Shown here one piece after another: positions 4,208 through 44,674 of a stretch of 64,000 bases of DNA (position 1 is its first letter; each line of letters starts with the position of its first letter). A program made the position numbers and the translations under genes. The notes under the pieces are model-generated. The model worked only from the letters and a program-made list of their open reading frames with translations. It was not told where the DNA came from and ran no database searches. Origin of the DNA: a bacterium (lineage in GTDB: Bacteria > Myxococcota_A > Bradymonadia > UBA7976 > UBA1532); the NCBI GenBank assembly GCA_030427205.1, contig JAUHXC010000011.1, positions 44,016-108,015 of the forward strand, written 5' to 3'.

Positions 4208-4893
4208 GGGCTGCCTCCTTGCGTCGGCGGCGGCAGGGTCGGCGCCCGCATGCCGCTCTGGGGCACCGGCACGATCTCCACCCGCCGATTGCGGGCCCGG
4301 CCGGCCTCGTCGGTATTGGGGGCCGCCGGGTGATGCGATCCGAAGCCGGCGGCGAAGAGCCGCTGCGGGGGCACCTCGTGGCTCAACAGCCCGCGGACCA
4401 CCGTCAGCGCCCGCTCGGTGGAGAGCTGCCAGTTGTCGGCGAAGCGTGGCCGATCGCCGTGGATCACCAGATCGTCGGTGAACCCTCCCACCATCACCAT
4501 CTGCTGCTGCTCGGTCAACCACCGGGCCAGCGGCGGGCCGATCTCGGCGAGCAGCGCGGCGCCCTCGGGGCGCAGGTCGGCGGAGTACAGGTCGAAGAGC
4601 ACGCTGCCGGCGATGGCGATGCGGCCGTCTTCCAGAGTGATGCGCCCCGCGGCCAGGGGCGCCGCCAGGGCCGCCTCCAGCGCCGCGAGCCGCTCGTCGG
4701 CCGCCTCGCGGGCCGTCTGCGCCTCGACCCGGGCCTCCTGCTCGGCTTCGAGCGAGGCGGCCAGGTCGACCTGGAACCACACCGCGACGACGAAGAAGAG
4801 CACGAACAGGCCCATCAGCCCGGCCATCAGGTCGCCGAAGACCAGCCAGACATGGCCGGTCTCGCCGGACACCTCGCGCTCGTCGAGCATCAT
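4204..4893 (-). CDS. MotB/ZorB-like stator subunit with OmpA-like peptidoglycan-binding domain
   Basis: 229 aa. A single N-terminal TM carries a conserved Asp, 'HVWLVFGDLMAGLMGLFVLFFVV', compared with MotB 'ADFMTAMMAFFLVMW'. The C-terminal OmpA-like domain ends in 'NRRVEIV'. Its ATG overlaps the upstream gene's TGA (ATGA). Confidence 0.85.
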   Translation of the reverse strand: MMLDEREVSGETGHVWLVFGDLMAGLMGLFVLFFVVAVWFQVDLAASLEAEQEARVEAQTAREAADERLAALEAALAAPLAAGRITLEDGRIAIAGSVLFDLYSADLRPEGAALLAEIGPPLARWLTEQQQMVMVGGFTDDLVIHGDRPRFADNWQLSTERALTVVRGLLSHEVPPQRLFAAGFGSHHPAAPNTDEAGRARNRRVEIVPVPQSGMRAPTLPPPTQGGSP

Positions 4894-8504: not shown

Positions 8505-8630
8505 CCGATCCTCCGGGGGCTGGTGCAGATACGGCAGCCGGTCATCGCCGACCGATCGACCGCTGTCAAGGGTCACGGGGGGCAAAAAACGTCACTGGTC
8601 CGGGCAGATGTATCGGTCGACCATGCGCCG

Positions 8631-17339: not shown

Positions 17340-17431
17340 CGGGCACTCTCCCCCGGGCGGAGCCGGGCGGGCGGCTGGGGTCGCGGTCGCCCGGGCCCGC
17401 GCGGCGGGTCGGGCCCACTGTCAGGCGGCGA

Positions 17432-19618
17432 TCAGGCCTGCAGCCCCAGCTTGCGGGCCTGAGCGGCGAGCTGCTCGAGCTTCTGCTTCGTCTCGCCGTC
17501 GGCCTCGGTGGCCAGCCGCGCGATGAGGCCGGCGATGCCCAGGTTCTTGACGTTCTCGGCGGTCAGCCGGCCGGCGAGGATGTCCTTGACGTCGTCGGGC
17601 AGGCTGCGCTGACCCGAGAGGTAGGGCTGCATCGTCGTGCTGGCCACGTCCGAGCTCTCCACCAGCCCGTCGAGGCTCTTGCCCAGGCTGACGGCGTTGA
17701 CGAACTTGTCGAAGAACTGCCCGTCGCCGCCGACGATGTTGATGTCGGCCTGCTGGAACGCCGCCGCCAGCACCCGCGCCTGATGCTCGGCGATCTGCAC
17801 CTGCGCGCCCACCTTCTCCAGCGCCACCTGCTTCTGCATCTCAAGCTGCAGGCGGAACTCCTCGTGCTCGCGGCCGACCCCGTCGAGGGCCTTCATCGCC
17901 GCGGCCTTCTCGGCCAGACCCGAGGCCTCGGCGGCCAGCTTCTCCTTGACCGCGGTGGCCTCGGCCAGCCCGCGCTTCTCGATCGCGGCGGCTTCGGCCT
18001 CGCGCACCCGCGCCTGAGCCAGCCCCTTCTCCTCTTCGCCGGCGGCCTCGGCCAGCTTCTTCGACTTGATGACGTCGGCCTCGGCCTGGCCCTCCTGCAG
18101 CGTCGCCTGGGCCATCGCCTGGCGCACCTTGACCTTGGCCAGCCCCTTCTTCTCCTCGCCCTGGGCCTCGGCGGCCATCTTGTCGAGGGTCACCGTCGCG
18201 TGGGCCTTGCCCTGCTTCTCGATCGCGGCGGCCTCGGCCTCCTTGACCCGCACCTGGGCCAGCCCCGAGGCGGCCTCCTCGGCCTGAACGCCCTCGGCCA
18301 TGCGCATCTTGGCCCGGGCCTGCTTGTCGCTGGCCTCCAGGTCGGCCTCGGCGATGGTCAGCTTCTCCCGGGCCTGGAACTTGGCCACCTCTTCCTGGGC
18401 CTCGGCGGCCTTGATGTTCTTGACGAGCGCCTCCTGGGCGTCGGCCTCGGCGGCGACGATCTTGACCTTCTTCTGCCGCTCGGCCTCGGCGTGGGCCCGC
18501 AGATCCTTGATGCGCTCCTCTTCCTCGGCGACCGTCTTCTCCACCGCGATGCGCTGGCGGATGACGTCGGCGATCTCCTTGCGCTGCTTCTCGAGCTCCT
18601 TCTCCTTGTCGATGCGCTGCAGCTCGACCTCACGCTCGCGGCCGATCTCCTCGACGTCGGCGGCCTTCTTGACCCGCACCGACTCGACGGCCACCTCGCG
18701 CTCGCGGGCCTTCATGGCGACCTCGATCGCCCGCAGCTTGCCCTGCTCGCCCTTCGAGACCTCCTCCTCGGCCTTCTGGCGGATGAGCGCGGTCTTCTTC
18801 TCCTCCTCGGCCTGGACCCGCAGAGCCTCGTTGCTCTCGCGGCTCTGGGCCATCGCGATCTCCTTCTCCTTCTTGGCGACCGCGTCGGCCCGCTGCTGGT
18901 CGAAGCGGTAGATCGCCTCGTCGGCCTTGAGGTCCTGCGAGCCCATCTCCATCCGCTCCTTCTGGCGGACTTCGTTGGTCTTGATGTTCTGACCGGCGGT
19001 CAGCTCGGTGATCTTGCGGATACCCTGGGCGTCGAGGATGTTCTGCTTGTCGAGGTGCTCGATGGGCGTCTGCTCGAGGAAGTCGATCGCGGCGTCATCG
19101 AGCACGTAGCCGTTGAGGTCCTTGCCGATGACCTCGATGATCTGATCCTTGAAGTCGTCCCGCTGGGTGTAGAGCTGCTCGAACTCGAGCCGCTTGCCGA
19201 CCGTCTTCAAGGCCTCGGAGAACTTGGCGACGAAGAGCTCTTCGAGCGTCTTCTGGTCGCTGGCGCGGGCGCAGCCGATGCTCTGGGCCACCTTGAGCAC
19301 GTCGTCGGCGGTCTTGTTGACCCGCACGAAGAAGGTCACCTTGATGTCGGCCCGCACGTTGTCTTTGCAGATGAGACCCTCGTGGGCCCGCCGCTCGAGC
19401 TCGATGGTCTTCACCGAGATGTCCATCGTCTCGCAGCGATGGATGATCGGGTAGACGATGCCGCCGGTGAAGGTCACCTCCGGGTCCTGCTTCATCTTGT
19501 TGATGATGAGCGCCTTGCCCTGATCCACCTTGCGGTAGAACTTCGAGATGATGACCAGCACCCCGATGATGAACAGGATGACCAGCGCGGCGACGATGAG
19601 CATCACTTGAAGCGGCAT
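17432..19618 (-). CDS. flotillin-family SPFH/Band-7 protein (FloT/YqiK-like)
   Basis: 728 aa. N-terminal TM 'MPLQVMLIVAALVILFIIGVLVIISKFY' is followed by an SPFH domain. A ~400-aa Ala/Glu/Lys-rich flotillin repeat region ('EAEAAAIEKQGKA...') and a C-terminal domain follow. Confidence 0.9.
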   Translation of the reverse strand: MPLQVMLIVAALVILFIIGVLVIISKFYRKVDQGKALIINKMKQDPEVTFTGGIVYPIIHRCETMDISVKTIELERRAHEGLICKDNVRADIKVTFFVRVNKTADDVLKVAQSIGCARASDQKTLEELFVAKFSEALKTVGKRLEFEQLYTQRDDFKDQIIEVIGKDLNGYVLDDAAIDFLEQTPIEHLDKQNILDAQGIRKITELTAGQNIKTNEVRQKERMEMGSQDLKADEAIYRFDQQRADAVAKKEKEIAMAQSRESNEALRVQAEEEKKTALIRQKAEEEVSKGEQGKLRAIEVAMKAREREVAVESVRVKKAADVEEIGREREVELQRIDKEKELEKQRKEIADVIRQRIAVEKTVAEEEERIKDLRAHAEAERQKKVKIVAAEADAQEALVKNIKAAEAQEEVAKFQAREKLTIAEADLEASDKQARAKMRMAEGVQAEEAASGLAQVRVKEAEAAAIEKQGKAHATVTLDKMAAEAQGEEKKGLAKVKVRQAMAQATLQEGQAEADVIKSKKLAEAAGEEEKGLAQARVREAEAAAIEKRGLAEATAVKEKLAAEASGLAEKAAAMKALDGVGREHEEFRLQLEMQKQVALEKVGAQVQIAEHQARVLAAAFQQADINIVGGDGQFFDKFVNAVSLGKSLDGLVESSDVASTTMQPYLSGQRSLPDDVKDILAGRLTAENVKNLGIAGLIARLATEADGETKQKLEQLAAQARKLGLQA

Positions 19619-19680
19619 CGCGATTTCCCCCTCGGCCGGCGCGCGAGCCGGCCGTCTGCAGTCGGATCTCTACAAACGAA

Positions 19681-20577
19681 TCAAACGTCGAGCGGCTCGA
19701 CCACGTAGGCCTCCCGCTCCCGGTCGAAGTCGATGACCAGCACCGTGTCGCCGCGGCCGATGCCCTTCTCGGGCTTGGCGCGCACCTCGATGCGCAGGAA
19801 GTCGCCGCCCACCTTGCAGTCGGCCAGCCCGAAGCGCTCGGTGACCTTGCCGGTGGTGACCACCGCGGTATTGCCCACCACGTCGGCCCGGGTGCGGCCG
19901 GTGCTGCCCACGAAGACCGGCGCCAGCGGCCGGATGATGATCGAGGTGAACGGCACGGCGACCACGAAGGCGCCCAGGCCCACCAGCGGCACCAGCGCGA
20001 TGTTCGGCAGCGTGCCGCCGAGGTAGTACATGCCCAGCATCGACAGCGCCCAGCCGGTCAGCACGATCGAGCTGATGACCACCGTCATCGGCGCCGAGCG
20101 CAGCTTGAGCGCGCTGAGCAGCTGCGCCAGCCCGCTGCCGCCAGCCAGCTTGCCCGCCAGGCCATCGCCGTCGGCGGCCCCGTCTGCGATGCCATCGGCG
20201 GCCCCATCGGCCAGCCCGTCCGCCGCCCCGTCGGCCAGCCCGTCGGCCGCCCCGTCGAAGGCGCCGTCCAGCGCCTCGGCGGCCCCATCGGCCACGCCGT
20301 CCGCCGCGCCGTCCAGGGCTCCGTCGAGCGCGCCGTCCAGCGCCTCGCCGGCCCCTTCGAAGGCGCCGTCGGCCAACCCCTCGACCGCCCCTTCGGCCAA
20401 GGCCTCGGCGCCGCCCTCGGTGCCGCCCTCCAGCAGCCCGTCGGCGTCGCCGATGTCGAGCATGTCGATGTCGAGGGCGCCGAGCACGACGAACAGCCAG
20501 TACACCACGATCACCACCAGCAGGATGGTGTAGACCACCGTGGGGAAGGCAAGGGCAGCGGCGAGCAGCTCGGGCAT
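19681..20577 (-). CDS. NfeD/YqiJ-like membrane protein with C-terminal OB-fold
   Basis: ATG 20577 ('MPELLAAALAFPTVVYTILLVVIVVYWLF...'). Three or four TMs. An unusual (A/L)DG(A/L) acidic repeat linker is encoded by degenerate 12-bp tandem repeats. The C-terminal beta-barrel 'VVGNTAVVTTGKVTERFGLADCKVGGDFLRIEVRA...GDTVLVIDFD' is an NfeD C-terminal domain. The gene is 62 nt upstream of the flotillin gene on the same strand. Confidence 0.85.
   Translation of the reverse strand: MPELLAAALAFPTVVYTILLVVIVVYWLFVVLGALDIDMLDIGDADGLLEGGTEGGAEALAEGAVEGLADGAFEGAGEALDGALDGALDGAADGVADGAAEALDGAFDGAADGLADGAADGLADGAADGIADGAADGDGLAGKLAGGSGLAQLLSALKLRSAPMTVVISSIVLTGWALSMLGMYYLGGTLPNIALVPLVGLGAFVVAVPFTSIIIRPLAPVFVGSTGRTRADVVGNTAVVTTGKVTERFGLADCKVGGDFLRIEVRAKPEKGIGRGDTVLVIDFDREREAYVVEPLDV
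20150..20420 (-). repeat. degenerate 12-bp tandem repeat encoding the (A/L)DG(A/V) acidic linker of the NfeD-like protein
   Basis: DNA reads 'gccgtcggccagcccgtcggccgccccgtcgaaggcgccgtccag...' with a 12-nt periodicity. The translated repeat is 'DGALDGALDGAADGVADGAAEALDGAFDGAADGLADGAADGLADGAADGIADGAADGDG'. Confidence 0.6.
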
Positions 20578-20703
20578 GGGCTCCGCGGGTATCGTTCGGG
20601 TCGTCGGCGGATCGAGACTGAACCTGTCGGTCACGCACGTCAAGGGGCCGTCTACCCCGCTCGATGTGGTCCCCGCCGAGACGGTGCGCTAGGGTGCGTT
20701 GCG

Positions 20704-21933
20704 GTGGCTGTATCGGCCACGCGGGAGGTCGTGGTGTCCGAGGAAGAGCGCGAAGAGAGCGAGCCGCCGCGGCTCCCGATCTCGCAGATCATGCTGAAGG
20801 ACTTTTTGTCTTATGGGCCGGGCGAGTACACCTTCGACCTGAAGGCGCTCAACGTGCTCATCGGCCCGAATGGGTCGGGCAAGACCAACTTGATCGAGGC
20901 GTTCGAGGTGCTGCGGGCCGTGCCGAAGGACGTGCTGCGGCCGTTTCGGCGCGGCGGGGGGTTCGGCCGATGGGTCTTCAACGGCGCATCCGGTGAGGCT
21001 GTCCCGGCACTCGGTTTGCTCACTGCTGGCGGTACGTCGTCGCTTCGCTATCACATCGAGCTGACCGAGTCCGAGTGGGGGAGCGCGCAGGTTCGCAGCG
21101 AGTCTGTACTGCCCGGCCAGCCCTACTCGACGCCCGACGAGTTCTTCTTGGAGCGCGAGCTGTATGGGCCGGCCAGGATCATGGGCCGGGGGTGGGGCGG
21201 GGACAACGAGCGCGACGTCAAAGTGGACGACGCAACGTCGGTCCTGGCTCAGGTCAAAGACGAAATGGCCTACCCCCAGCTGGCCCGGATCAGCAGACTC
21301 ATGGAGTCGATCCAGATCTTCCGGTCATGGGCGCTGGGTCCCAATGCACCAACCCGCGGCGCTTGCCCGTCCGACGTACGTCAGGACCGGCTGGAGGAAG
21401 ACTTCTCCAACCTGCCGATGCGCCTTCAGGCTCTGCGACGCATGCCTGCCTTGAAACGGCGACTCCAGGCGTTGCTGAGCGATCTGGCACCCGGCTTCGA
21501 CGACTTCGAGGTCTTCCCCGAAGGTGGGACGCTGCACCTCTACCTGACCGAAGGCGACAACAACATCTCGGCCCAGCGGCTCTCCGACGGCACGTTGCGC
21601 TATCTGTGCCTGCTCGCCATCCTGCTCGACCCACCCGAGGGCGGGGTGATCATCATCGAAGAGCCCGAGTTGGGGCTGCATCCCGACATGCTCGGCACCC
21701 TGCGCGATCTGCTCGTCGAGGCCAGCGAGACCGCCCAGATCATCATCACGACCCACTCGACGATGCTGGTCGACGCCTTCACCGAGCACCCCGAGGCCAT
21801 CGTCGTCTGCGAGAAGCCCGAGGGCAGCACCGAGCTGCGGCGTCTGACCCGCGAGGAGGTCGACGCGTGGCGTGAATTCGGCTCGCTGGGTCAGCTCTGG
21901 ATCTCGGGCCAGTTCGGGGGCACGCGCTGGTGA
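20704..21933 (+). CDS. ABC/SMC-like AAA ATPase (AAA_21/OLD-AbiLi-like)
   Basis: Walker A 'LIGPNGSGKTNLIEAF'. Signature/Q-loop-like 'LSDGTLRYLCLLAILL'. Walker B 'GVIIIEEPELGLHPDM'. H-loop 'IIITTHS'. Start uncertain: ATG 20704, or GTG at 20734 after GGGAGG. The stop overlaps the start of the next gene (GTGA). Confidence 0.8.
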   Translation: MAVSATREVVVSEEEREESEPPRLPISQIMLKDFLSYGPGEYTFDLKALNVLIGPNGSGKTNLIEAFEVLRAVPKDVLRPFRRGGGFGRWVFNGASGEAVPALGLLTAGGTSSLRYHIELTESEWGSAQVRSESVLPGQPYSTPDEFFLERELYGPARIMGRGWGGDNERDVKVDDATSVLAQVKDEMAYPQLARISRLMESIQIFRSWALGPNAPTRGACPSDVRQDRLEEDFSNLPMRLQALRRMPALKRRLQALLSDLAPGFDDFEVFPEGGTLHLYLTEGDNNISAQRLSDGTLRYLCLLAILLDPPEGGVIIIEEPELGLHPDMLGTLRDLLVEASETAQIIITTHSTMLVDAFTEHPEAIVVCEKPEGSTELRRLTREEVDAWREFGSLGQLWISGQFGGTRW

Positions 21934-33627: not shown

Positions 33628-34947
33628 TCAGGCGGGCGCGACCCGCACCGGCACCGGCTCGGCCGGGCGCAGGGTGATCGAGGGCAGCAGGGCGGGTCGG
33701 CCCGGGCGCAGCAGTTCGAAGCGCGCCCGCTGATACAGCGACGCCAGCACCAGCACCGCCTCCATCAGGGCGAAGTGGTTGCCCACGCAGACCCGCGCGC
33801 CGCCGCCGAACGGCAGGTAGTCCCAGCGGCCGGGTCGGCCGTCGAGCCAGCGCTCGGGCCGGAAGGCCTCGGGCGCGGCGAAGCGCACCGGATCGTGATG
33901 CATCGTGATGATCGGCACCATCACCGTCGTGCCCGCCGGCAGCCGGCAACCGCCCACCTCGACGTCGCGGGTCGGCGACCGCCCGATCAGCCACGCCGGC
34001 GGGAAGACGCGCATGGTCTCCTCGACCACCGCGGTCGTCCAGCGCAGCTCGGGGAAGTCCTCGGCGGTCAGCGGCCGGTCTCCATAAGGCGCCAGCTCCG
34101 CCCGCAGCCGCGCCTCGGCGGCGGGGTGGCGGCCCAGCAGATGCATCGCGAAGGTCAGGGCCAGGGCGGTGGTCTCGTGGCCGGCGAGGAAGAGCGTCAC
34201 CGCCTCGTCGCGCAGCCCGGTCGTATCGAGCCCGGTGCCGTCCTCGTCGCGGGCTTCGAGCAGCCGCCACAGCAGGTCGTCCCCCGCCGGTCGGCTGCGG
34301 CGGATCGCGATCAGCCGGTCGACCTCTTCGGTGACCGTGCGCGCCGCGCGGTCGATGCGCCACTTGGCCGAGTAGGGCACGAACTGCGGCACGAAGCGCT
34401 GCACGCTGCGCTCGACCTGGATATGGGCCGCCATCGCCTCTTCGATCACGTGCCCGATGCGATCGACCCCCTGCACCTCGTCGACGGCGAAGAGCGCCTC
34501 GGCGACGATGCCCAGGGTCAGCTCCATCATCTCGTGGTGCAGATCGTACTCGCCGCCCCGGGCGGCGGCCTGCTCAACCCAGCGGCGGGCGTGGGCCACG
34601 AAGATGTCGGCGTAGTGGCGGATGTGCCCGCGGCGCAGGGTCGGCGCCACCAGCTTGCGCCGCCCGCGCCAGTGGTCGCCTTCGCTGGTCAACAGCCCCT
34701 GCCCCAGCAGGCGCGACAGCTCGGCGGTGAACTCGTCCTTCTGAAAGACCCGCTGCCGGTCGAGCAGCACCTCGGCCACGCCGGCCGCGTCGCGCACCGA
34801 GACCAGCCAGCGGCCGAGCACCTTCAGCGCGAACATGTCGCCGAACTCGGCGTGCCAGCGGGCGAGGCTGCCGATCGGGTCACGGTCGAACGCCATCAGC
34901 CCGCGCAGGCCGCCGCGGGGGCCGGGCAGATCGGCGACCGACGGCAT
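33628..34947 (-). CDS. cytochrome P450
   Basis: Heme-binding loop 'FGGGARVCVGNHFALME'. I-helix 'LFLAGHETTA'. ExxR 'VVEETMRV'. 439 aa. The ATG overlaps the stop of the upstream small membrane protein gene. Confidence 0.9.
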   Translation of the reverse strand: MPSVADLPGPRGGLRGLMAFDRDPIGSLARWHAEFGDMFALKVLGRWLVSVRDAAGVAEVLLDRQRVFQKDEFTAELSRLLGQGLLTSEGDHWRGRRKLVAPTLRRGHIRHYADIFVAHARRWVEQAAARGGEYDLHHEMMELTLGIVAEALFAVDEVQGVDRIGHVIEEAMAAHIQVERSVQRFVPQFVPYSAKWRIDRAARTVTEEVDRLIAIRRSRPAGDDLLWRLLEARDEDGTGLDTTGLRDEAVTLFLAGHETTALALTFAMHLLGRHPAAEARLRAELAPYGDRPLTAEDFPELRWTTAVVEETMRVFPPAWLIGRSPTRDVEVGGCRLPAGTTVMVPIITMHHDPVRFAAPEAFRPERWLDGRPGRWDYLPFGGGARVCVGNHFALMEAVLVLASLYQRARFELLRPGRPALLPSITLRPAEPVPVRVAPA

Positions 34948-35615
34948 CAGATATGGGCCGCGAGGCCGTCGGCGGGGGCGACGAGCAGCGGCACGGCGTG
35001 GTCGACGAGCTTCTCCTGCGGCAGCCGCCGCGGGTCGACCGTCACCCGGGCGATCCAGACGTCGCCGTCGGTCACCGAGGCGGGCAGCTTCACCGGCGGG
35101 CCCTCGTTCTCGAGCCGGTCGACCGCCTCGGCCATGTCGGCCGGCGTCTCGCCCTCGGACGCCGAGCGCACCTTCTTGGCCACGTCGCGCAGATACAGCC
35201 GGTCGAAGCGCTTGTCCTCATCGACGCTGAAGACCACCGTCGCCCACTCCGGCTCGTCGCCCGGCTGATACAGCCGCCCGTGGGCCTTGACCGCGCGCCC
35301 CTCGACCAGGGTCGCCGTCTGCAAGAGCTTCGCGGTGCGCGCCGAGGGCGAGGCCCCGCGGACCATCGCGATGCCGATGCCCATCCAGATCGGCGAGGCC
35401 AGCATCAGCCCCAGCTCGGGGCGCTCTTCGACGGCGATGCACAGCCCGATGGCCGCGCCGAAGACCGCCACCGACATCAAGATCAGCGGGAGGGTGGGAA
35501 ACGGCCGCGCCGGTCCGGATGCCACCCGGGTCAGGGGCAGCAGGCGGGTGTCGATGCGGCGGGGGGTGGAGCCGTACTGCTCACGCAGCTCGTCGAGGGT
35601 CAGCGGGTCGATCAT
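34947..35615 (-). CDS. small membrane protein (222 aa) coupled between the MMPL transporter and P450 genes
   Basis: In frame with the over-long ORF 34947..36254. ATG 35615 overlaps the TGA of the MMPL gene (ATGA). Two TMs: 'LPLILMSVAVFGAAIGLCIAV' and 'LGLMLASPIWMGIGIAMV'. A soluble C-terminal domain follows. Confidence 0.55.
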   Translation of the reverse strand: MIDPLTLDELREQYGSTPRRIDTRLLPLTRVASGPARPFPTLPLILMSVAVFGAAIGLCIAVEERPELGLMLASPIWMGIGIAMVRGASPSARTAKLLQTATLVEGRAVKAHGRLYQPGDEPEWATVVFSVDEDKRFDRLYLRDVAKKVRSASEGETPADMAEAVDRLENEGPPVKLPASVTDGDVWIARVTVDPRRLPQEKLVDHAVPLLVAPADGLAAHI

Positions 35616-37999
35616 CGGGTGGTTTCGCTCTCGGGGTCGGGCGTCCGGCCCGCGTCGCGGCGCAGCAGCAGCGCGGGCAACAGGAACGCGTCGGTGGTCA
35701 GGGCCACGATCAAAATGAAGGCCACCAGCATGCCGAACAGCCGGTTGGGCACGAAGGACGAAAACGCGAAGACGCCGAACGCGATCACCAGGGTCACCGT
35801 GGTGGCCACCAGCGCCGGCATGGTGTGGTCGAAGATGCGGGCCACCGAATCCAGCGGGCTGTGGCCCTGCTTGCGGGACTCGTCGTAGTGCGAGAGGAAG
35901 TGCACCGTATCGTCCACCGCGATGCCCAGACACACGCCGAACGCCACGATGGTGCCGATGTCGAGGTTGTACCCCAGCGCCGCGATGAGCGCCCCGCCGA
36001 ACAGCAGCGGGATCATATTGGGGATCATCGCCATCAGCCCCAGCTTGAGCGAGCGCAGCACGACCATCAGCAGCAGGCTGACGGTGACCATCGCGAGCAG
36101 CACCGAGGTCATGAACGTATCGACCACGTAGGGGTTCATCTGCAGCAGCAGCAGGTTCTTGCCCGTCGAGACCACGTCGAGCCCCAGCCGTTGCCCCTCG
36201 GCTTCGATGCGCTCCAGCTCGGGCAGCACCGACAGCGAGTTGTGCATGCGCCACAGCGACGTCAGCCGGATCGACGACTCGTCGATGCTCACCCGATCGT
36301 TGAGATCCATGCCCTGGGGCAGGTTGAAGGTGTACGTGAGGTAGGTCGCGGCCACCTCCTCGCGGGTATCGGGGATGCGGTACTGCTTGGGATCGTCGGC
36401 GTAGATCGAGCGGTGGGCCGCCTTGATCAGATCAACCACCGAGACCGCGCTCGTGACGTAATCCTGGGTGCGCAGCCAGTCGGCGAAGGTATCGACCCGG
36501 CGCAAGAACTCGGGATCCTTCATCCCGCCCTTCTCGCCGGTCTTGATCACCATCTCCACCGCCAGCCCGCCGCCCACGTCGGTCTCGAGGCGCTGGGTGG
36601 CCACGTTGAGTGGCGCGTCGTCGGCGAAATAGGCGAAGAGGTCGGAGTCGATGCGCAGCTGGGTCGCGATACCGACGGCGCAGACGGTCACCGTCAAGAA
36701 GCCCGCGATGATCCAGCCCTTGCGCCGGGCGATGACCCGGGCCGCGCCGGCGCCCCAGGTCCAGTGGCGGCGGGCGACGCGCCGCGGTTTGAGCGGCAGC
36801 AGCGTCAGCAGGCCGCCGGTGAGCGTATAGGTCAGCGCCCACGAGGCCAGCGTGCCGATGCCCGAGATCACGCCCAGATCGCGCACCGGCACCACCGACG
36901 CGCCCGAGAAGCTGAAGAAGCCGATGGCGGTGGTCACCGCGGTCAGCAGCGTCGGCTGCAGGTTGGCGCGCAGCGAGCGGCGCACCGCGTCGGCCCGCTC
37001 GACGCCCGGCGCGTAGAACTGGTCGAAGCGCTTGAGCACGTGCAGCCCCGTCGCGACGGCGATCGCGATGAGGAACTGCGGGACCGACGCGGTGAGGTTG
37101 TTGATCGGGCGGTCGAGCCAGCCGGCGGCGCCCAGGGTGGCCCCCGCCGTGCCCGCCAGCACCAGCACCGTCATCAACACCCCGCTGACCCGCCGCATGG
37201 CCAGTATCAGGCAGAACAGCACCAGCCCGCCCACGATCGGCAGCAGCGTGCGGGCGTCGCTCTGGGCCGCGGCGCGGAAGCTGTAGGCCACCATCGGCGA
37301 GCCGGTGATGTAGAAGCGGTGGTCGCCGCGCCCGCGGAACTCATCGAGGATCCCGTCGACCCCGTCGATGAGCGCGGTGAAGTCGGCCACCCCGTCCAGC
37401 TTGGGCTGCAGCCGGGCGTAGAGCACCGCCGTCGTCGCCGAGGTGCCCACCAGGTAGCCCGGCACCAGCTCGTGCTCCAGGGCCACCTTCTTGCGGTGGG
37501 CCAGGATCTCCGGGGTCAGCTCGCCCTCGTCGGGGATGAGCGGGTCGACGACGAGCCGTTCGACTTCCTCGTCCTCCTCGTCCTCCTCGTCCTCCTCATC
37601 GTCCTCGTCGTCCTGGACCTTCTCGCTGTGCACCCAGTTGAAGTTGGCCAGGGAGTCGACCCGGATGACGTCCGGCGCGGTCCACATGCGGTCGGTCAGC
37701 TCGCGCAGCAGCGTCGCCGACTCGACGTCGAAGATGCCCGAGGGGCTGTTGACGATCACGATGACCGATTGATCGTTGCCGAAGGTGCGCTCGAAGTCGT
37801 CGAACGCCTGCAGCAGCGGGTCGCCCTCTTCGAACCACACCCGATAGATGAACTCGGCCCGCAGGTGCCCGACCCCCGGACCGAGCGCGGCGACGAGCAG
37901 CAACCCGAACAGGATCGCGATCCACGGCTGGCGGACGATGAACTCGACCCACAGCCGGCCGATCCGGGTGCCGCCTTCGGCCATCTCCACTCCCGTCAC
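35612..37999 (-). CDS. RND-superfamily MMPL-like transporter (12 TM, two periplasmic loops)
   Basis: 795 aa. Two 6-TM bundles, each preceded by a large soluble loop. Typical MMPL/HpnN-like segments: 'GSPMVAYSFRAAAQSD', 'AFGVCLGIAVDDTVHFLSHY'. An acidic insert 'DDEDDEEDEEDEEDEE' is encoded by a (GAGGAGGAC)n repeat. Confidence 0.85.
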   Translation of the reverse strand: MTGVEMAEGGTRIGRLWVEFIVRQPWIAILFGLLLVAALGPGVGHLRAEFIYRVWFEEGDPLLQAFDDFERTFGNDQSVIVIVNSPSGIFDVESATLLRELTDRMWTAPDVIRVDSLANFNWVHSEKVQDDEDDEEDEEDEEDEEVERLVVDPLIPDEGELTPEILAHRKKVALEHELVPGYLVGTSATTAVLYARLQPKLDGVADFTALIDGVDGILDEFRGRGDHRFYITGSPMVAYSFRAAAQSDARTLLPIVGGLVLFCLILAMRRVSGVLMTVLVLAGTAGATLGAAGWLDRPINNLTASVPQFLIAIAVATGLHVLKRFDQFYAPGVERADAVRRSLRANLQPTLLTAVTTAIGFFSFSGASVVPVRDLGVISGIGTLASWALTYTLTGGLLTLLPLKPRRVARRHWTWGAGAARVIARRKGWIIAGFLTVTVCAVGIATQLRIDSDLFAYFADDAPLNVATQRLETDVGGGLAVEMVIKTGEKGGMKDPEFLRRVDTFADWLRTQDYVTSAVSVVDLIKAAHRSIYADDPKQYRIPDTREEVAATYLTYTFNLPQGMDLNDRVSIDESSIRLTSLWRMHNSLSVLPELERIEAEGQRLGLDVVSTGKNLLLLQMNPYVVDTFMTSVLLAMVTVSLLLMVVLRSLKLGLMAMIPNMIPLLFGGALIAALGYNLDIGTIVAFGVCLGIAVDDTVHFLSHYDESRKQGHSPLDSVARIFDHTMPALVATTVTLVIAFGVFAFSSFVPNRLFGMLVAFILIVALTTDAFLLPALLLRRDAGRTPDPESETTR
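37561..37615 (-). repeat. 9-bp tandem repeat (GAGGAGGAC)n encoding a poly-acidic loop in the MMPL transporter
   Basis: The plus strand reads 'ctcgtcctcctcgtcctcctcgtcctcctcatcgtcctcgtcgtcc'. Confidence 0.6.
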
Positions 38000-38087
38000 G
38001 CGTGTGCCGGACCGGTATACCCCGTACCGCCGGGCAAGGAAATACTCGCCGCCCGCGCGCGGCGGAACCGGCCGTCCGGGCGCGGCT

Positions 38088-39407
38088 TCAGAAGAAGCGC
38101 GAGAGCGTCAGGTTGAGCTCGTTGGCGTTGTTCCAGCGCTCGAGGCCCACCGCGATCAGCTCGCCGAGCTCGGGCCCCGCCCCGGCGTCGTCGGGCTCGG
38201 CCATGATCGCCCGCAGGTTGGCCTCCAGCGACCAGACGTCGCCCAGCCGGCGCTCGAAGCGGGCGGCGATCATCCACTCGCTCGGATCTTCGAGGTCGAC
38301 GATGACCCCCGCCTGCAGCCGGGTGCTCGACGTGTCGTTGAAGGCGTGGCGATAGCCCAGCAGCGCGTCGCGCTGATAGGGCCCCAGATCGGGCGTGGCC
38401 AGCTTGGGCTCGTCGTAGGTGATCATCGCCTGACCCTCGAGGATGAGCGTGCCCTCCCCCTGGCCGATGCCCCAGCCGAACTCGAGCCCGGCGGCGATCT
38501 GGGTGTGGTCGAGCATCTCGCGGTGGGTCAGCCGATAGCGCGGGCTGGGGTCGGGATAGCCGAACTCGCGGTGCCCCACCTCGAGCTTGCCCACCACCGG
38601 CCCGAACACCTGCTGCCAGGTGCCGCCGACCTGGGTCACGAAGTGGAACAGCGGCCGGATGTCGCCGGTGAACAGGTCGACCACCTGGGTCGGCTGGCTG
38701 CGGTCGACGTGCTGGAAGACGTGCAGGCTCAGGTCGGCGTCGCCCAGCGTCTGCTCGATGCGCAGCGCCCACTGGTGTTCGAGCCAGTCGTCGCCGATCT
38801 GGCGGTCGCGGCCGCTGAACAGCGGGTCGCCGAGCGGCACGTCGAGCCGCTTGGGGAAGGGTGAGAGCCGCGAGGCGGCCCGGGGCAGGATCGGCGCCCG
38901 GCGCACCGGCATGTAGTACGCCGAGACGTTGCCCTCCCAGAAGCGCACCTGCACCTCGACCATCGGCTCGCCGAGCTTGTCGGGGTTCTCGAGCCGCGAG
39001 TCGTAATTGCGCGCGTTGAGCATGTCGGCGGGGTGGAACGCCTCGGTGGCGCTCCAGTTGAGCAGCTGATAGCCCACCCGCACCCGCACCGGCTTCATCT
39101 TGAAGCCCAGATACAGCTCCTCGATGGCGACCAGGTTGCGGGTATCGTCGAGCGCGTCGACCCGGGAGAACAGCCGCAGCTGCCCGTCGAACGGCTTGTA
39201 GCGAGCGTTGGCCTCGAGCCGGCCGGCAAGCCCCAGGCCGGTATCCTGGGTGCGGTCGATGTCGTCGGGTTGAAAGACCCGCCCTTCGATCGACAGCTGA
39301 CCCTGACTCTTGACCTTGAGCTTCTTGCCCTCGGCGGGCACCGCCAGCAGGCACAGACCCGCCGCAGCCGCCAGCGCCGAACGCCACCCGAGCCACCTGC
39401 CGCTCAT
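38088..39407 (-). CDS. outer-membrane beta-barrel protein (DUF1302-like)
   Basis: Signal peptide 'MSGRWLGWRSALAAAAGLCLLAVPAEG'. Alternating amphipathic beta-strand pattern throughout. C-terminus '...NLTLSRFF' ends in a terminal aromatic residue, as OMPs do. It sits between the LolA-like and MMPL genes on the same strand. Confidence 0.65.
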   Translation of the reverse strand: MSGRWLGWRSALAAAAGLCLLAVPAEGKKLKVKSQGQLSIEGRVFQPDDIDRTQDTGLGLAGRLEANARYKPFDGQLRLFSRVDALDDTRNLVAIEELYLGFKMKPVRVRVGYQLLNWSATEAFHPADMLNARNYDSRLENPDKLGEPMVEVQVRFWEGNVSAYYMPVRRAPILPRAASRLSPFPKRLDVPLGDPLFSGRDRQIGDDWLEHQWALRIEQTLGDADLSLHVFQHVDRSQPTQVVDLFTGDIRPLFHFVTQVGGTWQQVFGPVVGKLEVGHREFGYPDPSPRYRLTHREMLDHTQIAAGLEFGWGIGQGEGTLILEGQAMITYDEPKLATPDLGPYQRDALLGYRHAFNDTSSTRLQAGVIVDLEDPSEWMIAARFERRLGDVWSLEANLRAIMAEPDDAGAGPELGELIAVGLERWNNANELNLTLSRFF

Positions 39408-39459
39408 GCTCCCCCTCGTGTCCGAGTCCCCCCAACCTGCGCGGTCGGGGCCCCGATCG

Positions 39460-40260
39460 TCAATCTTCGAGCGCGTCCTTGTCGAACTCGTCCTCGTCCA
39501 GGTCGGCCTCGAGCTCGCGCTCGGTCCACTCGAGGATCGACTTCTTGTGGGTCTGGTGGTTGACCACCTCGAGGGTCTTGGGGCGCCACCACTTGCCGTG
39601 GCGGGCGAAGCCCTTGGCGGTCAGCGTCTTGAGCAGCGCCTGCTTGCGATCGTAGAAGTCGATGCGCAGCGGCTGCTGATACTCCTTGTCCATCCAGACG
39701 ATCTGCTTGGAGTAGCCCGAGCGGCGGCTGGTCGGCACCCGGGTCAGCTTCCACGCCGCCCGCCCCTCGAGGGTCTCCTCACCGTCGAGGTTCCAGGTGT
39801 ACTTCGACACCTCCTGTCCGCCGAGGTCTTCGAAGGCGAACTCCGAGCCCATGAACGCGCCCGACTGGTTGCGGCTGCTGATGCGCTTCACCCGGCGCAT
39901 GGCCGAGAGGTACAGCCACTGCTTGTCGCTCTTGCCCACCCGCCCGTGGGTGAGCAGCTTGGTGCCCTTGATGTCCGGCGGCCAGAGGAAGGTCAGCATC
40001 GAGCGGTCGCCCTCGTCCTCGACCTCAATGCTCTTCATCGCCAGCTTGCGTTTGACCCGGTCGCCGCTGGCGTTGATCAGCACCATCTCGAGCTCGGCCT
40101 CTTCGCTGCCGAAGCCGCTGTTGGCCGCGTCGCAGCGCTTGGCGATGGCCAGGCCCTCGGCGGCGGAGTCCGCGGCGGCGACGGCGGTGGCGGACAGCAG
40201 GGCGGCGGAGGCGAACAGCAGGATTCGGGGCAGCGACATCATGGACCTCGCGGACGGCAA
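39460..40260 (-). CDS. LolA-like outer-membrane lipoprotein-sorting protein (DUF1329-like)
   Basis: Signal peptide 'MMSLPRILLFASAALLSATAVAAAD'. The body 'LEMVLINASGDRVKRKLAMKSIEV...MLTFLWPPDIKGTKLL...' is characteristic of LolA-fold proteins encoded next to RND/MMPL exporters. Confidence 0.65.
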   Translation of the reverse strand: MPSARSMMSLPRILLFASAALLSATAVAAADSAAEGLAIAKRCDAANSGFGSEEAELEMVLINASGDRVKRKLAMKSIEVEDEGDRSMLTFLWPPDIKGTKLLTHGRVGKSDKQWLYLSAMRRVKRISSRNQSGAFMGSEFAFEDLGGQEVSKYTWNLDGEETLEGRAAWKLTRVPTSRRSGYSKQIVWMDKEYQQPLRIDFYDRKQALLKTLTAKGFARHGKWWRPKTLEVVNHQTHKKSILEWTERELEADLDEDEFDKDALED

Positions 40261-40427
40261 GTGGCGGTATACGCCGAAAGACAGCTTCAGCGTGCTCAGG
40301 GCGGCGATACGCCGTCAAGAGCCGAATGTTCATCACACCGCCGGGCGCTGACACAGTTCGTCACAGGATACCGTCACGGCTGGAAAAGCCCAACCTGATC
40401 GGATTTCCCCGCCTCGGCGGCGGTCGG

Positions 40428-40455
40428 TGTGCCAGATCCTGATCCATCTGGCACA
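40428..40455. promoter_or_regulatory. perfect 10-bp inverted repeat TGTGCCAGAT-N8-ATCTGGCACA in the divergent promoter region between the LolA-like operon and the ACP gene
   Basis: The sequence reads 'tgtgccagatcctgatccatctggcaca'. A third half-site-like copy 'ttggcacaca' lies 12 bp downstream. The surrounding region has lower GC. This is a likely transcription-factor operator. Confidence 0.45.
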
Positions 40456-40637
40456 ACTCGCCCATGTTGGCACACAACGACTCAAACCACCGGCCAGCCT
40501 GCGAAATCGACCCCCGAGTGGGTAGCCAACGATCCCGTGCAGGGGCGGCCCGATCGGCCGGATCGGGCGCCCGTGTCGGGGTTCTGGCACAGGCTTCGCA
40601 TAGCTATCGCAGCGGGAGCAGACTCTGGGGATGACCG

Positions 40638-40913
40638 ATGACCTTCACCGCCGAACGTATCGCCGAGATGCTGGTGACCGAGATCGCCGAGGTCTGCCCG
40701 GAGCTGGGCCGGCCCGACCTCGACGCGTCGATCACCGGTGACCTGGGCCTCGACAGCCTGTGCCTGACCTCGCTCTTCGGCATGGTCAAGACGGAGCTGG
40801 GCCAGGTGGAGCTCTCGGGCTGGTTCATCCGCGCGAGCAATACCGGCACCGATACCATCGGCAGCCTGTCGGCCTACCTCGCCGCTCAGCTCGCGGCCCG
40901 CAAGGCGGCCTGA
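40638..40913 (+). CDS. stand-alone acyl carrier protein (phosphopantetheine attachment site)
   Basis: 91 aa. 'ITGDLGLDSLCLTSLFGMV' contains the DSL phosphopantetheinylation motif of ACP/PCP. GGGGA lies upstream of the ATG. Confidence 0.75.
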   Translation: MTFTAERIAEMLVTEIAEVCPELGRPDLDASITGDLGLDSLCLTSLFGMVKTELGQVELSGWFIRASNTGTDTIGSLSAYLAAQLAARKAA

Positions 40914-41080
40914 GCCCGCCGCGCCGTCCACCCGCGGCCCCTCCGTTCGACCCCCCTTCCAACTTCGTCCGCGCCCGACGACGTCTCGTCGACCAGCGCC
41001 CGCTCGTCGGCGACCCGCACCAAAAATCCTGCAGGCCCCCCGGGTGACCCACTACAGTGCGGTCTCTCGCGGAGGTCGTC

Positions 41081-44000
41081 ATGCCGTCACCCGACCGTCA
41101 TCTCTTGCCCGTGCTGGGGCTGCTGCTGCTCTGCGGCTGTGATCCGGGCGGCGGCGCGTCGCCGGAGACCGACGGCGCCGCGGTCGATCGCGGCGTCGCG
41201 GTGGACGTCGGCGCGGCGGACGCCGGCCCAGCGGACGTCGGCGCAGAGGACATCGGCGCAGAGGACGTCGGCGCAGAGGACGCCGGCACCGAGGACGTGG
41301 GGCCGGAGGACGCTGCGCGCGACATGGCCGGGCCGGACATGACGCCGCTCGACATGGCGCCGCTCGACATGGCGCCGCTCGACATGAGCCCGCCGGACGC
41401 GGCGCCCGCCCCGCGCAGCGCGCCGATCATCTCCGAGTTCATGGCCAGCAACCGCGATACGCTGCTCGACGAGACCGGCGGCAGCCCCGACTGGATCGAG
41501 CTGCACAACCCGGGCAATACGCCCTACGACCTCGACGGCCATCACCTCACCGACGACCTCGACGCGCCCACCCGCTGGCGGTTTCCGGCCGTCGAGCTGC
41601 CGCCGCAGGGTTATCTGATCGTCTTCGCCTCGGGGGACGACCGCCGCGACCCCGACGCCCCGCTGCACACCGACTTCCGCCTGGACGCCGACGGCGAGAC
41701 CGTCGCGCTGACCGGCCCCGCCGGCGATGTGATCCACGCCATCGAGGACTGGCCGGGCCAGGCGACGGGCGTCAGCTATGGCTACCCGATGCGGATCGGC
41801 CGGACGGCGCTGCTCGACACCGGCAGCCCGGCGCGGGCCTGGATCGGGCCCGATCCCGAAGGGGCCGAGCGGCCCGACTTCGACGATGGCGACTGGCTGC
41901 CGGTGACCCAGGGGGCGGGCGTGGTCGCCCGCGGTCCGGGCGAGCCGCGGCCCGCGGGTATCTACGATCTGGGCCCGCAGCTGGGGCTGGCCGACGTCTT
42001 CTGGCTGCGGATTCCGTTCGCGGTGCCCGATGGCGACGACGGCGCCGACCTCGAGCTGGAGCTGACCTACGACGACGGCCTCACCGCGTGGGTCGACGGC
42101 GAGCTGGCCCATCGGGACAACGACGTGCTGGGCGCGACCACCGATCGGCCGGACTCGCGGGCGCTGGGGCGGGTGCGCATCCCGCTGCCCGAGCGGGCGG
42201 CGGGGCCGGGCGCGATCACGCTGCGCGCGGTGGACGCGGCGGCGGCCGACGGGCTGTTCTTCGCCGCGGCCCGGGTGGTGCGGCCGGGCGTCGTCATCGC
42301 CGACGCGGCGCGCCACCTGCCGACGCCGACGCCGGGCGCGCCGAACCTGATCGACGCCCGCGGGCTGGGGCCGATCGTGGTCGACCTCGATCGGCATCAG
42401 CCGCTGCTCGAAGGCCAGCCGCTGCGCATCGGCGCCCGGGTGATCGAGACCGACGCGCCGGTGGCCGCCGTGCGGCTGCATCACCGGGTGATGTTCGGCC
42501 CGGAGCAGACGACCGAGATGCTGCGGGTGGACGACGGGCGCTGGCTGGCCGAGCTGGACACCGCCCGCGTCGCGCCGGGGCAGATGATCCGCTGGCGGGT
42601 CGAGGCGGTCGATCTCGAGGGGCGCACGGCCCGCGAGCCGCCTTTCCTCGATCCGCTCGACAGCGAAGAGTACGTCGGCACGGTGGTGCATCAGCGCATC
42701 GAGACCAACCTGCCGGTCTACCACTGGTTCGTCGAAGATCTGGCGGCGGCGGGCACCGAGGCGGGCACCCGCGGGGTGCTGTGGTACGACGGCGAGCTGT
42801 ACGACAACATCGAGATCGACCTGCACGGGCAGGCGACGACGCGGTTTCCCAAGAAGAGCTACAACTTCGACTTCAATCGCGATCACCGCTTCCGGGTGCG
42901 CGACGACCTCGAGCGGGTCAAGGACTTCGACCTGCTGACCAACTACGCCGACAAGTCGAAGATGCGAAATACCTTGTCGTACGGCATGTTCCGGGACGCG
43001 GGCCACGCGTATCACCTGGTTTTTCCGGTGCGGCTGCACCTCAACGGCGAGTTCTTCGCGGTCTACGAGTTCGTCGAGGATCCCGACGAGCGCTGGCTGC
43101 GGCGCATGGGCTACCCCGAGCCATTGGGCTCGGTCTACAAGTGCTACGATACGCTGGCGAGCGTGAACGGCAGCGAGAAGAAGACCTTCGAGGAGGACGG
43201 CACCGCCGACCTGCAGGCGCTCATCGACGGGCTGGGGCAGCCGGGGGACGCGCGGCGGCGCTTCATCTACGACCACGTCGACCTGGCGGGCATGGCCAAC
43301 TTCGCGGCGATGCTGTTCATCACCTCGGGCCGCGACTGCTGCACCAAGAACTACTACGCCTATCGCGACCACTCGACCGACATGTGGTGGTACCTGCCGT
43401 GGGACATCGACCTGAGCCTGGGGCGCAACTGGACCGGCAGCTACTTCGACGACCGGATGTTCCCCGAGAACCCGCTGTACGAGGGGCAGGAGAACCGGCT
43501 GATCGGGTCGCTCTACGCGCTGCCGGAGTTCCTCGAGATGTACCACCGGCGGGTGCGCACGCTGGCCGACGAGCAGATGCAGAGCAGCGCGACGCCGTAT
43601 GAAGAGCGCTACCTGGAGAACGAGGCCGATCGCTGGCAGGCGATCATCGGCGCCGACGCGGCGCTGGACAACGCGGCGTGGGACACCTGGGGGCAGCCGC
43701 AGACGATGGCCGAGGCGGTCGAGATCATGAAGACCGAGTGGCTGCCCGGCCGGCGGGCCTATATCTACGGGCAGCTCGCGCAGCGGGACGGCGGCGGGCC
43801 GGTGACGACGCTGATCGACGGGGCGACGGGGGCCACCCGCGGGCGCTGGTTCGTGCCGGTGGACGACGGGCTGGGCGAGGCGTGGACCGCGCCGGACTTC
43901 AATGACGGCGGCTGGGACGCGGGGCCCCTGGGCATCGGCTACGAGAACGGCAATGGCTACCAGGCGCTCATCGCCAGCGAGGTGCGGCCGGCGGCGGTGA

Positions 44001-44670
44001 ACCCGGCGGCGACCACCGTGTTGGTGCGGATCGAGTTCGAACTCGACGCGCCGGCCGATCTGCCGGTGCTGCGCATGAAGTACGACGACGGCTACGTGGC
44101 GTACATCGACGGGGTCGAGGTGGCCCGGCGCAACCTGTCCCCGGGGCCGGTGAGCTGGAACGACAGCGCGGCGGTGCACGACGACGGGGCCGCGGTGCGC
44201 TTCGAAGATCTGCCGCTCGACGGGCTGGTGCTCGCGCCGGGCCGGCACGTGCTGGCCATCCGGCTGGTCAACGCGGGCGCCGACTCGAGCGACTTCCTGC
44301 TGCAGCCGGCGCTGGTCGACGGCCTGCCGGCGGTGGGCGACGGGCCGCTGCCGCCAGCGCAACCGGCGGAGGTGGACGTAACGTTCGAAGCGGACGAGGC
44401 GGCCGGCGCCGAGAGCTTCGTGGCGCTGCGCAATAGCGAGGCCTTCGCGGTGGACATCTCGGGCTGGCGGCTCTCGGGGCGCGGCATCGAGCACGTCTTC
44501 CGCGGCGGCACGGTCATCCCGGCGGGCGGGCAGCTGTACGTGGTGGCCGATGTGCCGGCGTTCCGGGCGCGCGCGCAGGGGCCGCGCGGCGGGCAGGGGC
44601 TCTTCCTGCAGGGCAACTGGCGCGGCGAGCTGGTGGAGGGTCCGCTGGACGGGCTCGCGCTGGAGGCGCC

Positions 44671-44674
<4 letters not shown>
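41081..44674 (+). CDS. CotH-family kinase-like protein flanked by two lamin-tail (LTD) domains; lipoprotein
   Basis: GGAGG is 5 nt upstream of ATG 41081. Lipobox 'LLLLCGC'. N-terminal low-complexity region with tandem repeats. LTD 1: 'IISEFMASN...PDWIELHNPGNTPYDLDGHHLTDD...PPQGYLIVFASGD'. CotH core: 'VYHWFVEDLAAAGTEAG...YNFDFNRDHRF...DLLTNYADKSKMRNTLSYGMF...YKCYDTLASVNG...KNYYAYRDHSTDMWWYLPWDID'. LTD 2: 'FVALRNSEAFAVDISGWRLSG...GGQLYVVAD'. Confidence 0.85.
41200..41400 (+). repeat. tandem 18-bp (GAEDxG) and 15-bp (PLDMA) repeats in the 5' end of the CotH gene
   Basis: 'gacgtcggcgcagaggac' units repeat from about 41200 to 41310. 'gacatggcgccgctc' occurs four times from about 41336 to 41395. 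The translations are 'DVGAADAGPADVGAEDIGAEDVGAEDAGTEDVGPED' and 'MTPLDMAPLDMAPLDMSPPD'. Confidence 0.7.

Follow-up and report, generated by a model that had tools for sequence, protein, structure and literature searches.

A conserved envelope gene triad extended by a hairpin membrane protein and a cytochrome P450 in a narrow Myxococcota lineage

Why should the gene for a soluble cytochrome P450 be chained translationally to the gene for a small membrane protein, and that gene in turn to one for an RND pump? The question is raised by a 64-kb stretch of DNA of about 72% G+C from a bacterium of the Bradymonadia (contig JAUHXC010000011.1, positions 44,016 to 108,015; hereafter the window, which is the whole stretch that was analyzed). 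Five genes on its minus strand encode, in order, a LolA-like protein, an outer-membrane protein (OMP), an RND permease, a small hairpin membrane protein and the P450, and a gene for an acyl carrier protein (ACP) lies on the plus strand, divergent from the first of the five. Our results point, at a probability that we put at roughly 0.55, to a trans-envelope transporter for a hydrophobic compound or lipid that has recruited a tailoring P450. The initial annotation of this DNA had described the same genes and had read them as a unit for the synthesis, oxidation and export of an acylated or lipidic molecule; what it observed is confirmed, and what it concluded is supported in part only. The six genes are the following.

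39460-40242, minus strand: LolA-like protein (PF17131, E 7e-54; DUF1329, E 4e-11)
38088-39407, minus strand: OMP, an 18-strand barrel with no Pfam or NCBIfam match of its own
35612-37984, minus strand: RND permease (MMPL, E 1e-19; TIGR00921, HAE3, E 2e-47; HpnN, E 4e-36)
34947-35615, minus strand: small hairpin membrane protein of 222 amino acids, no family
33628-34947, minus strand: cytochrome P450 (PF00067, E 4e-66)
40638-40913, plus strand: ACP of 91 amino acids (PP-binding, 19.8 bits against a cut-off of 20.8)

Open reading frames (ORFs) and matches to hidden Markov models (HMMs) confirm all six genes, five on the minus strand and the ACP gene on the plus strand, and third-codon-position G+C supports the same set as had been listed earlier. 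The RND gene and the small-protein gene share a 4-nt ATGA overlap (the junction reads CGATGATCGA), and the small-protein gene overlaps the P450 gene by 1 nt in a TGATG (the junction reads ATCTGATG). The coupling that had been claimed for these last two junctions can be read directly from the DNA and is kept in relatives: the same ATGA/TGATG junctions are found at the related loci L001, L004 and L006 and, because they recur there, the overlaps are not a product of chance. In this genome, translational coupling at the junction bears out the description of the P450 as an extension of the transporter genes. The remaining intervals are 52 bp between the LolA-like and OMP genes, about 100 bp between the OMP and RND genes, and 395 bp between the divergent ACP and LolA-like genes.

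The LolA-like protein comprises 260 amino acids when read from the ATG at 40242 (the ORF reaches up to a TTG at 40260); it carries a Sec signal peptide, and a lipobox cysteine is absent. It is a member of PF17131, its best family (182.7 bits against a gathering threshold of 30), and also lies above the threshold of DUF1329 (PF07044; 43.1 bits against 23.1), so this call survives verification by HMM. Clear homology links it to solved PF17131 (LolA_like/TP_0789-like) proteins, namely, PDB entries 3BK5 (E 1e-64), 9TP6 (LolA3 of P. gingivalis; E 4e-39) and 4Z48 (E 3e-23). In P. gingivalis LolA3, a sheet of 13 strands bears a hydrophobic groove; the protein does not pair with LolB, and a function outside lipoprotein sorting has been proposed for it (PMC13103446).

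The case of the OMP is less simple. The protein has 439 amino acids, a signal peptide and a C terminus ending in SRFF. It had been called DUF1302-like, and as a direct HMM assignment this fails formally: no Pfam or NCBIfam family matches the protein, and DUF1302 (PF06980) does not do so even at E <= 1, for which reason the direct assignment was dropped. However, 3 of 44 homologues, 39-45% identical to the OMP, match PF06980 (best E 6e-13), and a structure model and fold comparison confirm an 18-strand barrel. By transitive homology and fold, the OMP is thus distantly related to DUF1302.

The RND permease has 790 amino acids from the ATG at 37984, with a GGAG just before the start. It matches MMPL (PF03176) with 70.9 bits against a gathering threshold of 20.5, the HAE3 model TIGR00921 with 161.6 bits, which is under the subfamily cut-off of 351.9, and the HpnN model TIGR03480 with 124 bits against a cut-off of 752; a match to BstA is weaker (E 1e-3). 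Judging from these matches, it is an inner-membrane permease of the HAE3/MMPL type and belongs to the HAE3 family. A run of about 20 Asp/Glu residues (DDEDDEEDEEDEEDEE) lies in its first periplasmic loop, encoded at about 37560-37620 (minus strand).

How far these genes keep company elsewhere was assessed by a scan with the OMP alignment, one genome per species, which returned 80 loci, 79 of them outside the close clade. They come from the Myxococcota, Bdellovibrionota, Acidobacteriota, Gemmatimonadota, Elusimicrobiota, Leptospiraceae and others. Of the assessable loci, 68 of 72 have a LolA gene directly upstream of the OMP gene and 49 of 66 an RND gene directly downstream; all three genes, in the order LolA-OMP-RND, are present at 44 of 60, in several phyla. 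This conserved order upholds the initial comparison with DUF1302/DUF1329/RND envelope triads. The LolA-like and OMP genes seem to be more tightly bound to one another than to the RND gene. At the 79 loci beyond the close clade, tblastn detected no gene for the P450, the hairpin protein, the ACP or a homologue of the major vault protein (MVP), which is encoded nearby in the window, and HMM searches with a limit of E <= 1 recovered neither the ACP nor the hairpin protein there. Outside one narrow clade of Myxococcota neither the hairpin protein nor the ACP occurs, and the P450 is confined to part of that clade. From this distribution we conclude that the triad is an old, widespread unit, with two clade-specific companions in the hairpin protein and the ACP and a third, the P450, that is limited to a sub-clade. 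The usual order in the clade is Peptidase_S10, ACP (divergent), LolA-OMP-RND-hairpin, then either the P450 or nothing, a small gene on the opposite strand, MVP and a protein of about 1370 amino acids. At eight loci from the Bdellovibrionota and relatives (L057, L062, L066, L074, L076, L080, L087 and L089), the LolA-like/OMP pair occurs with no RND gene detected downstream; at the two for which ORFs were listed (L076 and L087), the gene after the pair is convergent.

Several known systems indicate what such a triad might do. In the nearest of them to have been characterized, AmeABCD of Castellaniella defragrans, a COG4447 propeller accompanies a DUF1302 barrel, a DUF1329 LolA-like protein and an HAE3 RND protein, and deletion of the system lowers monoterpene tolerance (PMC6394551). 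It resembles the window cassette in combining an HAE3 RND protein and a LolA-superfamily protein with an outer-membrane barrel, which is of the DUF1302 type in AmeABCD and a distant relative of that type in the window, and it is tied to hydrophobic compounds. The two differ in gene order (OMP-LolA-BNR-RND in AmeABCD, LolA-OMP-RND in the window), in the carrier (451 amino acids, whereas that of the window is a short PF17131-type protein of 260) and in the barrel (605 against 439 amino acids), and the window cassette adds the hairpin protein and the P450. No COG4447/BNR subunit is encoded at 33.6-40.9 kb or in the cassettes of relatives; a BNR/sortilin-like gene does exist at 8523-10283, but at a distance of 28 kb and with no linkage to the cassette. 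In Shewanella and Pseudomonas, DUF1302, DUF1329, BNR and RND genes are cofit, and export of an envelope component has been proposed for them (10.1101/072470). HpnN with HpnM/HpnS, for hopanoids, and BstABC, for sterols, consist of an RND pump, a periplasmic shuttle and an outer-membrane acceptor. The window cassette shares this logic of pump, shuttle and acceptor for an isoprenoid lipid, and its RND protein matches the HpnN model, but the partners in those systems have other folds (MlaC/MlaA-like and lipocalin), the RND protein scores far below the equivalog cut-offs, and no hopanoid or sterol genes occur in the window. We file the cassette as a distinct variant that probably works like these systems and not as a member of the AmeABCD subfamily.

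By analogy with HpnN, AmeABCD and BstABC, the proton-driven RND pump would extract a hydrophobic or lipidic molecule from the inner membrane, the LolA-like protein would ferry this cargo across the periplasm in its hydrophobic groove, and the barrel would insert it into the outer membrane or let it pass through. In the narrow Myxococcota lineage, the RND gene would then have gained the translationally coupled gene for the 222-amino-acid hairpin protein. In the sub-lineage to which this genome belongs, a soluble P450 would further have been added and coupled to the hairpin gene, recruited from the large family that the stand-alone P450s of myxobacteria form. This P450 would most likely oxidize the cargo in the cytoplasm, prior to export.

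Only 13 clusters of homologues of the hairpin protein, at 56-100% identity, were found among 5.8 billion sequences, with a mean column identity of 81%, and none was found outside the clade by HMM at E <= 1. An AlphaFold2 model (pLDDT 68) shows two helices, at residues 41-61 and 66-86, followed by a mixed alpha/beta domain; this C-terminal domain comprises about 135 amino acids. Arg and Lys residues lie at both ends of the hairpin, and the loop that connects its helices is acidic. The positive-inside rule would place the two termini, and with them the C-terminal domain, in the cytoplasm. The protein has no Pfam or NCBIfam match, no significant fold match and no PDB match by profile. Wherever its gene occurs in the clade, it follows the RND gene directly, with the 4-nt overlap, and the protein is probably an accessory or adaptor of the pump. 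A comparable pairing is that of MmpS with MmpL, in which a small membrane protein is likewise encoded beside an MMPL-family pump, with which it presumably cooperates. MmpS proteins have one helix and a periplasmic domain, whereas the hairpin protein lacks a match to MmpS (PF05423), has two helices and a domain predicted to be cytoplasmic, and is encoded downstream of its pump rather than upstream. We also entertain, as a speculation that we hold to be rather improbable, that the hairpin protein represents a new type of RND accessory whose cytoplasmic domain docks the P450, and perhaps an acyl-ACP, onto the HAE3 pump as a membrane metabolon, which would couple the last step of lipid tailoring to export via the LolA-like protein and the barrel.

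What might the P450 act on? The protein is soluble, with 439 amino acids; it matches PF00067 with 224 bits, and its translation shows intact AGHETT (I-helix), EETMR (ExxR) and FGGGARVCVG (heme-thiolate loop) motifs. Its nearest solved relatives are 7WZL (E 3e-50), CYP97A3, CYP97C1, CYP46A1, CYP170A1, CYP175A1 and CYP102. We take these to be hydroxylases of isoprenoid or fatty-acyl lipids, namely, of carotenoids (CYP97A3 and CYP97C1 as carotene hydroxylases), sterols (CYP46A1 as cholesterol 24-hydroxylase), sesquiterpenes and fatty acids. It reaches the cut-off of none of the NCBIfam equivalog models, with 208 of 700 bits for the albaflavenone monooxygenase CYP170A1, 192 of 525 for ApyO and 179 of 800 for PtlI. 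A carotenoid lead was also pursued and discarded: an amine-oxidase fragment 5' of the RND gene at locus L006 proved to be a protoporphyrinogen oxidase and not CrtI.

Within the clade, the P450 is present in the window and at L004/L005 and L006/L007 and is absent from L001-L003 and L008. With or without it, the convergent stop codons at this end of the cassette lie exactly 7 nt apart, and from this constancy we conclude that a single ORF was cleanly gained or lost. That the P450 might be a regular partner of the triad is contradicted by these absences and by its lack at all 79 triad loci beyond the close clade; because the sister lineages and the 79 other loci do without it, we regard it as dispensable for the module. 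Its orthologues (at least 67% identity) are restricted to this clade, and the next match is a single homologue of 55% identity. Further out are thousands of stand-alone P450s of 41-48% identity, in Myxococcota and Bradymonadia and in unrelated contexts. An attempt to derive the substrate from the neighbors of the nearest homologues outside the clade was abandoned, as these are stand-alone genes in unrelated neighborhoods.

A P450 related to hydrocarbon and isoprenoid hydroxylases would also fit traffic in the opposite direction, in which the barrel and the LolA-like protein import a hydrophobe (a terpene, alkane, fatty ester or sterol), the RND protein assists or protects, and the P450 carries out the first degradative hydroxylation. 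In P. putida, growth on Tween 20 and butyl stearate depends on DUF1302, DUF1329, BNR and RND genes (10.1101/2020.07.04.188060), and AmeABCD is encoded in a monoterpene catabolic island, where an insertion in ameB impairs growth on monoterpenes (PMC6394551); both findings favor uptake and catabolism. So does the occurrence of DUF1329/DUF1302 genes in clusters for the degradation of phenanthrene, p-cresol and steroids. However, RND permeases are known to act as proton-driven exporters. AmeABCD itself behaves as an efflux or tolerance system, downstream catabolic genes (dehydrogenases, beta-oxidation) are absent from the window, and the P450 is missing from sister lineages that retain the whole transporter. 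Taken together, we consider uptake and catabolism unlikely, and export of a lipid or other hydrophobic cargo with tailoring by the P450 remains our preferred reading.

The initial annotation had grouped the five minus-strand genes as one cluster. Two relatives speak against a single operon, and they break the cluster at the same point, between the OMP and RND genes. At L011 (8567-11311; OMP 80% identical), Peptidase_S10 and the divergent ACP and LolA-OMP genes are followed by genes for a Ser/Thr kinase and SpoVR/DUF444/PrkA, with no RND gene within 10 kb. At L006 (1394-5720), genes for a protoporphyrinogen oxidase and a response regulator precede RND-hairpin-P450, the small ORF and MVP, and the LolA and OMP genes are lacking. 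The candidate regulatory elements of the region are the following.

40288-40332, minus strand: promoter-like block (TGAAC-N16-CGTA, CTTGACG, CACGCTG) 5' of the LolA-like gene, conserved in the window, L004, L001, L008 and L011
38047-38064, minus strand: terminator-like GC-rich hairpin with a T-rich tail in the OMP-RND spacer, suggestive only
38012-38023, minus strand: GGGGTATACCGG element with the palindrome GGTATACC, about 30 nt 5' of the RND start, candidate operator or internal promoter

The GGGGTATACCGG element is invariant in an alignment of the spacer from the window, L004, L001 and L008. Its palindrome occurs once in the 64-kb window, where 0.05 occurrences are expected, and once per clade locus, always some 30-45 nt ahead of the RND start codon. 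This holds for the split locus L006 too, where a different gene lies upstream. The terminator-like hairpin in the same spacer is one of 4 such sites in the region, against 2.2 +/- 1.4 expected, a number that is not above chance. The block 5' of the LolA-like gene presumably resembles promoters of the extracytoplasmic function type and is a candidate only; a scan of the region for the sigma-70 consensus gave no sites, and Rfam gave no riboswitch or other known RNA over the whole window, including the 395-bp divergent spacer. The five genes are best described as a pair of linked modules, LolA-OMP on the one hand and RND-hairpin-P450 on the other, and the latter has its own candidate regulatory site. 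The modules are separable, which by the initial annotation's own standard counts in part against it, but they are not unrelated, because most species keep them together.

Does the ACP belong to the system? Against PF00550 (PP-binding) the 91-amino-acid protein scores 19.8 bits, 1 bit short of the gathering score of 20.8. Its GDLGLDSL serine motif is nevertheless invariant in orthologues of 68-92% identity, an exhaustive phmmer search gave 76 matches that include tandem-ACP synthases (E 5e-9), and 8 of 10 relatives tested are PP-binding by Pfam. Judged by its sequence, the protein is a real carrier protein of predicted function, and the lone divergent ACP had been named correctly. In each clade member seen (L001-L004, L008 and L011), the gene stands divergently next to that of the LolA-like protein. 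Its two closest nonorthologous relatives (51-52% identity; L162 at 3640-6977 and L160 at 431-1625) are encoded directly 5' of a type III polyketide synthase (PKS), and at L162 an AMP-binding enzyme is also nearby, an arrangement like those of Ftp and alkylresorcinol loci. The setting recalls that of the FtpC-type stand-alone ACPs (for example, Ftp of Myxococcus xanthus), whose type III PKS/fatty acyl-AMP ligase loci produce phenolic lipids such as alkylresorcinols and alkylquinones; this hints that the ACP family may carry long acyl chains. Near the window ACP and its orthologues there is no type III PKS or ligase, however, and the likeness to Ftp is one of context only.

The ACP bears most directly on the model first proposed for this locus, in which the ACP, P450 and transporter together make, oxidize and export an acylated envelope or signaling lipid, with the ACP carrying the acyl chain of the cargo. 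That the ACP is a true carrier relative with a constant divergent place by the LolA-like gene, and that its nearest nonorthologous kin serve type III PKS and AMP-ligase loci of the phenolic-lipid kind, both lend the model some support, as does the coupling of mycobacterial MmpL pumps to lipid synthases. The enzymes that it needs are missing, however: when every sizeable ORF of the window was searched against Pfam, no ketosynthase, acyltransferase, adenylating enzyme or AMP-ligase, thioesterase, terpene synthase or phosphopantetheinyl transferase came up, and such genes are equally absent from the 10-kb flanks of relatives. The locus therefore lacks a core biosynthetic enzyme and is not a full biosynthetic cluster, and synthesis, oxidation and export as one unit find no synthase, ligase or acyltransferase to carry them. 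Where the cluster is split, moreover, the ACP gene remains beside LolA-OMP rather than RND-hairpin-P450, and it is absent from the 79 other triad loci, even at an HMM E value of <= 1. Because the clade is narrow, the synteny may simply be inherited. We regard the window ACP as an orphan copy, tied to the transporter only by synteny in a narrow clade and by staying with LolA-OMP at the split, and we think it very doubtful that it supplies the cargo; a transporter with a recruited P450 accounts for the locus in our preferred reading.

Downstream of the P450, the initial annotation had drawn attention to an MVP gene as the immediate neighbor. The gene is indeed near, but it is not strictly next, as a small gene on the opposite strand intervenes.

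33393-33620, plus strand: small gene of about 75 amino acids, convergent with the P450 gene and divergent from MVP, no Pfam or NCBIfam match
30819-33182, minus strand: MVP homologue (MVP_shoulder, E 2e-18; Vault_3)

The product of the small gene is 67-79% identical at L001, L004, L006 and L008, with an invariant YWDFxGGQAAGTAEHFRRH...LHHAAWC, and the gene occurs at every clade locus, whether the P450 is present or not; it is probably a neighbor and not part of the system. Since the series RND-hairpin-(P450)-small ORF-MVP-large protein is intact in all clade members seen, even at the split locus L006, a functional tie could be imagined in which RND-hairpin-P450 serves MVP and its neighbor of 1370 amino acids, for example, by providing or modifying a lipid for a vault-like or membrane-associated assembly. 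The opposite-strand gene separates the two units, however, and a metagenome scan with the MVP alignment retrieved 66 further loci, at 36-57% identity, none of which has a homologue of the LolA-like protein, OMP, hairpin protein, P450, ACP or 1370-amino-acid protein within 10 kb; 1 of the 66 has an unrelated RND gene of 26% identity. MVP, in turn, is found at none of the 79 other triad loci. The functional link was accordingly rejected on the 66 scanned loci, and with it any significance of this neighbor: the adjacency is inherited, lineage-specific synteny, and we hold a shared function to be highly improbable.

The remaining neighbors are noted for completeness. The MVP relatives have a conserved N terminus (MDNRRERE / LVLAPNEY). 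The 1370-amino-acid protein (26591-30703, minus strand), downstream of MVP, has no Pfam or NCBIfam match; it stands beside MVP only in the close clade, with 38-62% identity at L005, L006 and L008. Just downstream of the ACP gene, at 41057-44674 (plus strand), lies a gene for a secreted CotH-kinase-like protein of 1205 amino acids with lamin-tail domains and N-terminal short acidic peptide repeats, at the place where relatives carry the Peptidase_S10 gene. At 11811-21933, a protein of 1842 amino acids (DUF3686 ATPase, DUF7902 and AAA) is encoded adjacent to one of 728 amino acids with no family and near an AAA_21/AAA_15 (AbiEii-like) ATPase; this is possibly a defense-type locus.

Several points weigh against a lipid transporter with a recruited tailoring P450 and account for the moderate probability that we assign to it. 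Neither the sister lineages nor any of the 79 other triad loci has the P450, which might act on something unrelated; the context of its homologues outside the clade is uninformative, and no ferredoxin or reductase gene is present in the cluster. The hairpin model is of moderate confidence, and the cytoplasmic orientation is predicted from the positive-inside rule. The need of P. putida for related genes during growth on fatty esters may indicate uptake or processing rather than export. Because relatives split the cluster, and because a hairpin and a palindrome lie in the OMP-RND spacer, the five genes are probably not one obligatory operon. Beyond the gene identities, folds, overlaps, distribution and modularity of the parts, which stand as observed, the direction of transport, the nature of the cargo, the role of the hairpin protein and the action of the P450 on the cargo are what we infer.

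The triad is a known yet poorly understood system, and what is new here, the addition of the hairpin protein and the P450 in this clade, is a modest variant of it. Two over-interpretations are removed by the present analysis, that of a complete biosynthetic cluster and that of a functional tie to a vault-protein homologue. Close relatives offer ready-made comparisons, since the P450 is naturally present in some and absent from others and the cluster is naturally split in two of them. The combination of a LolA-like protein, a DUF1302-type barrel and an HAE3 RND pump occurs in many phyla, and a pump gene chained to a P450 offers a chemical handle on the cargo: if the substrate of the P450 were identified, the class of cargo that the triad carries would probably be identified with it.

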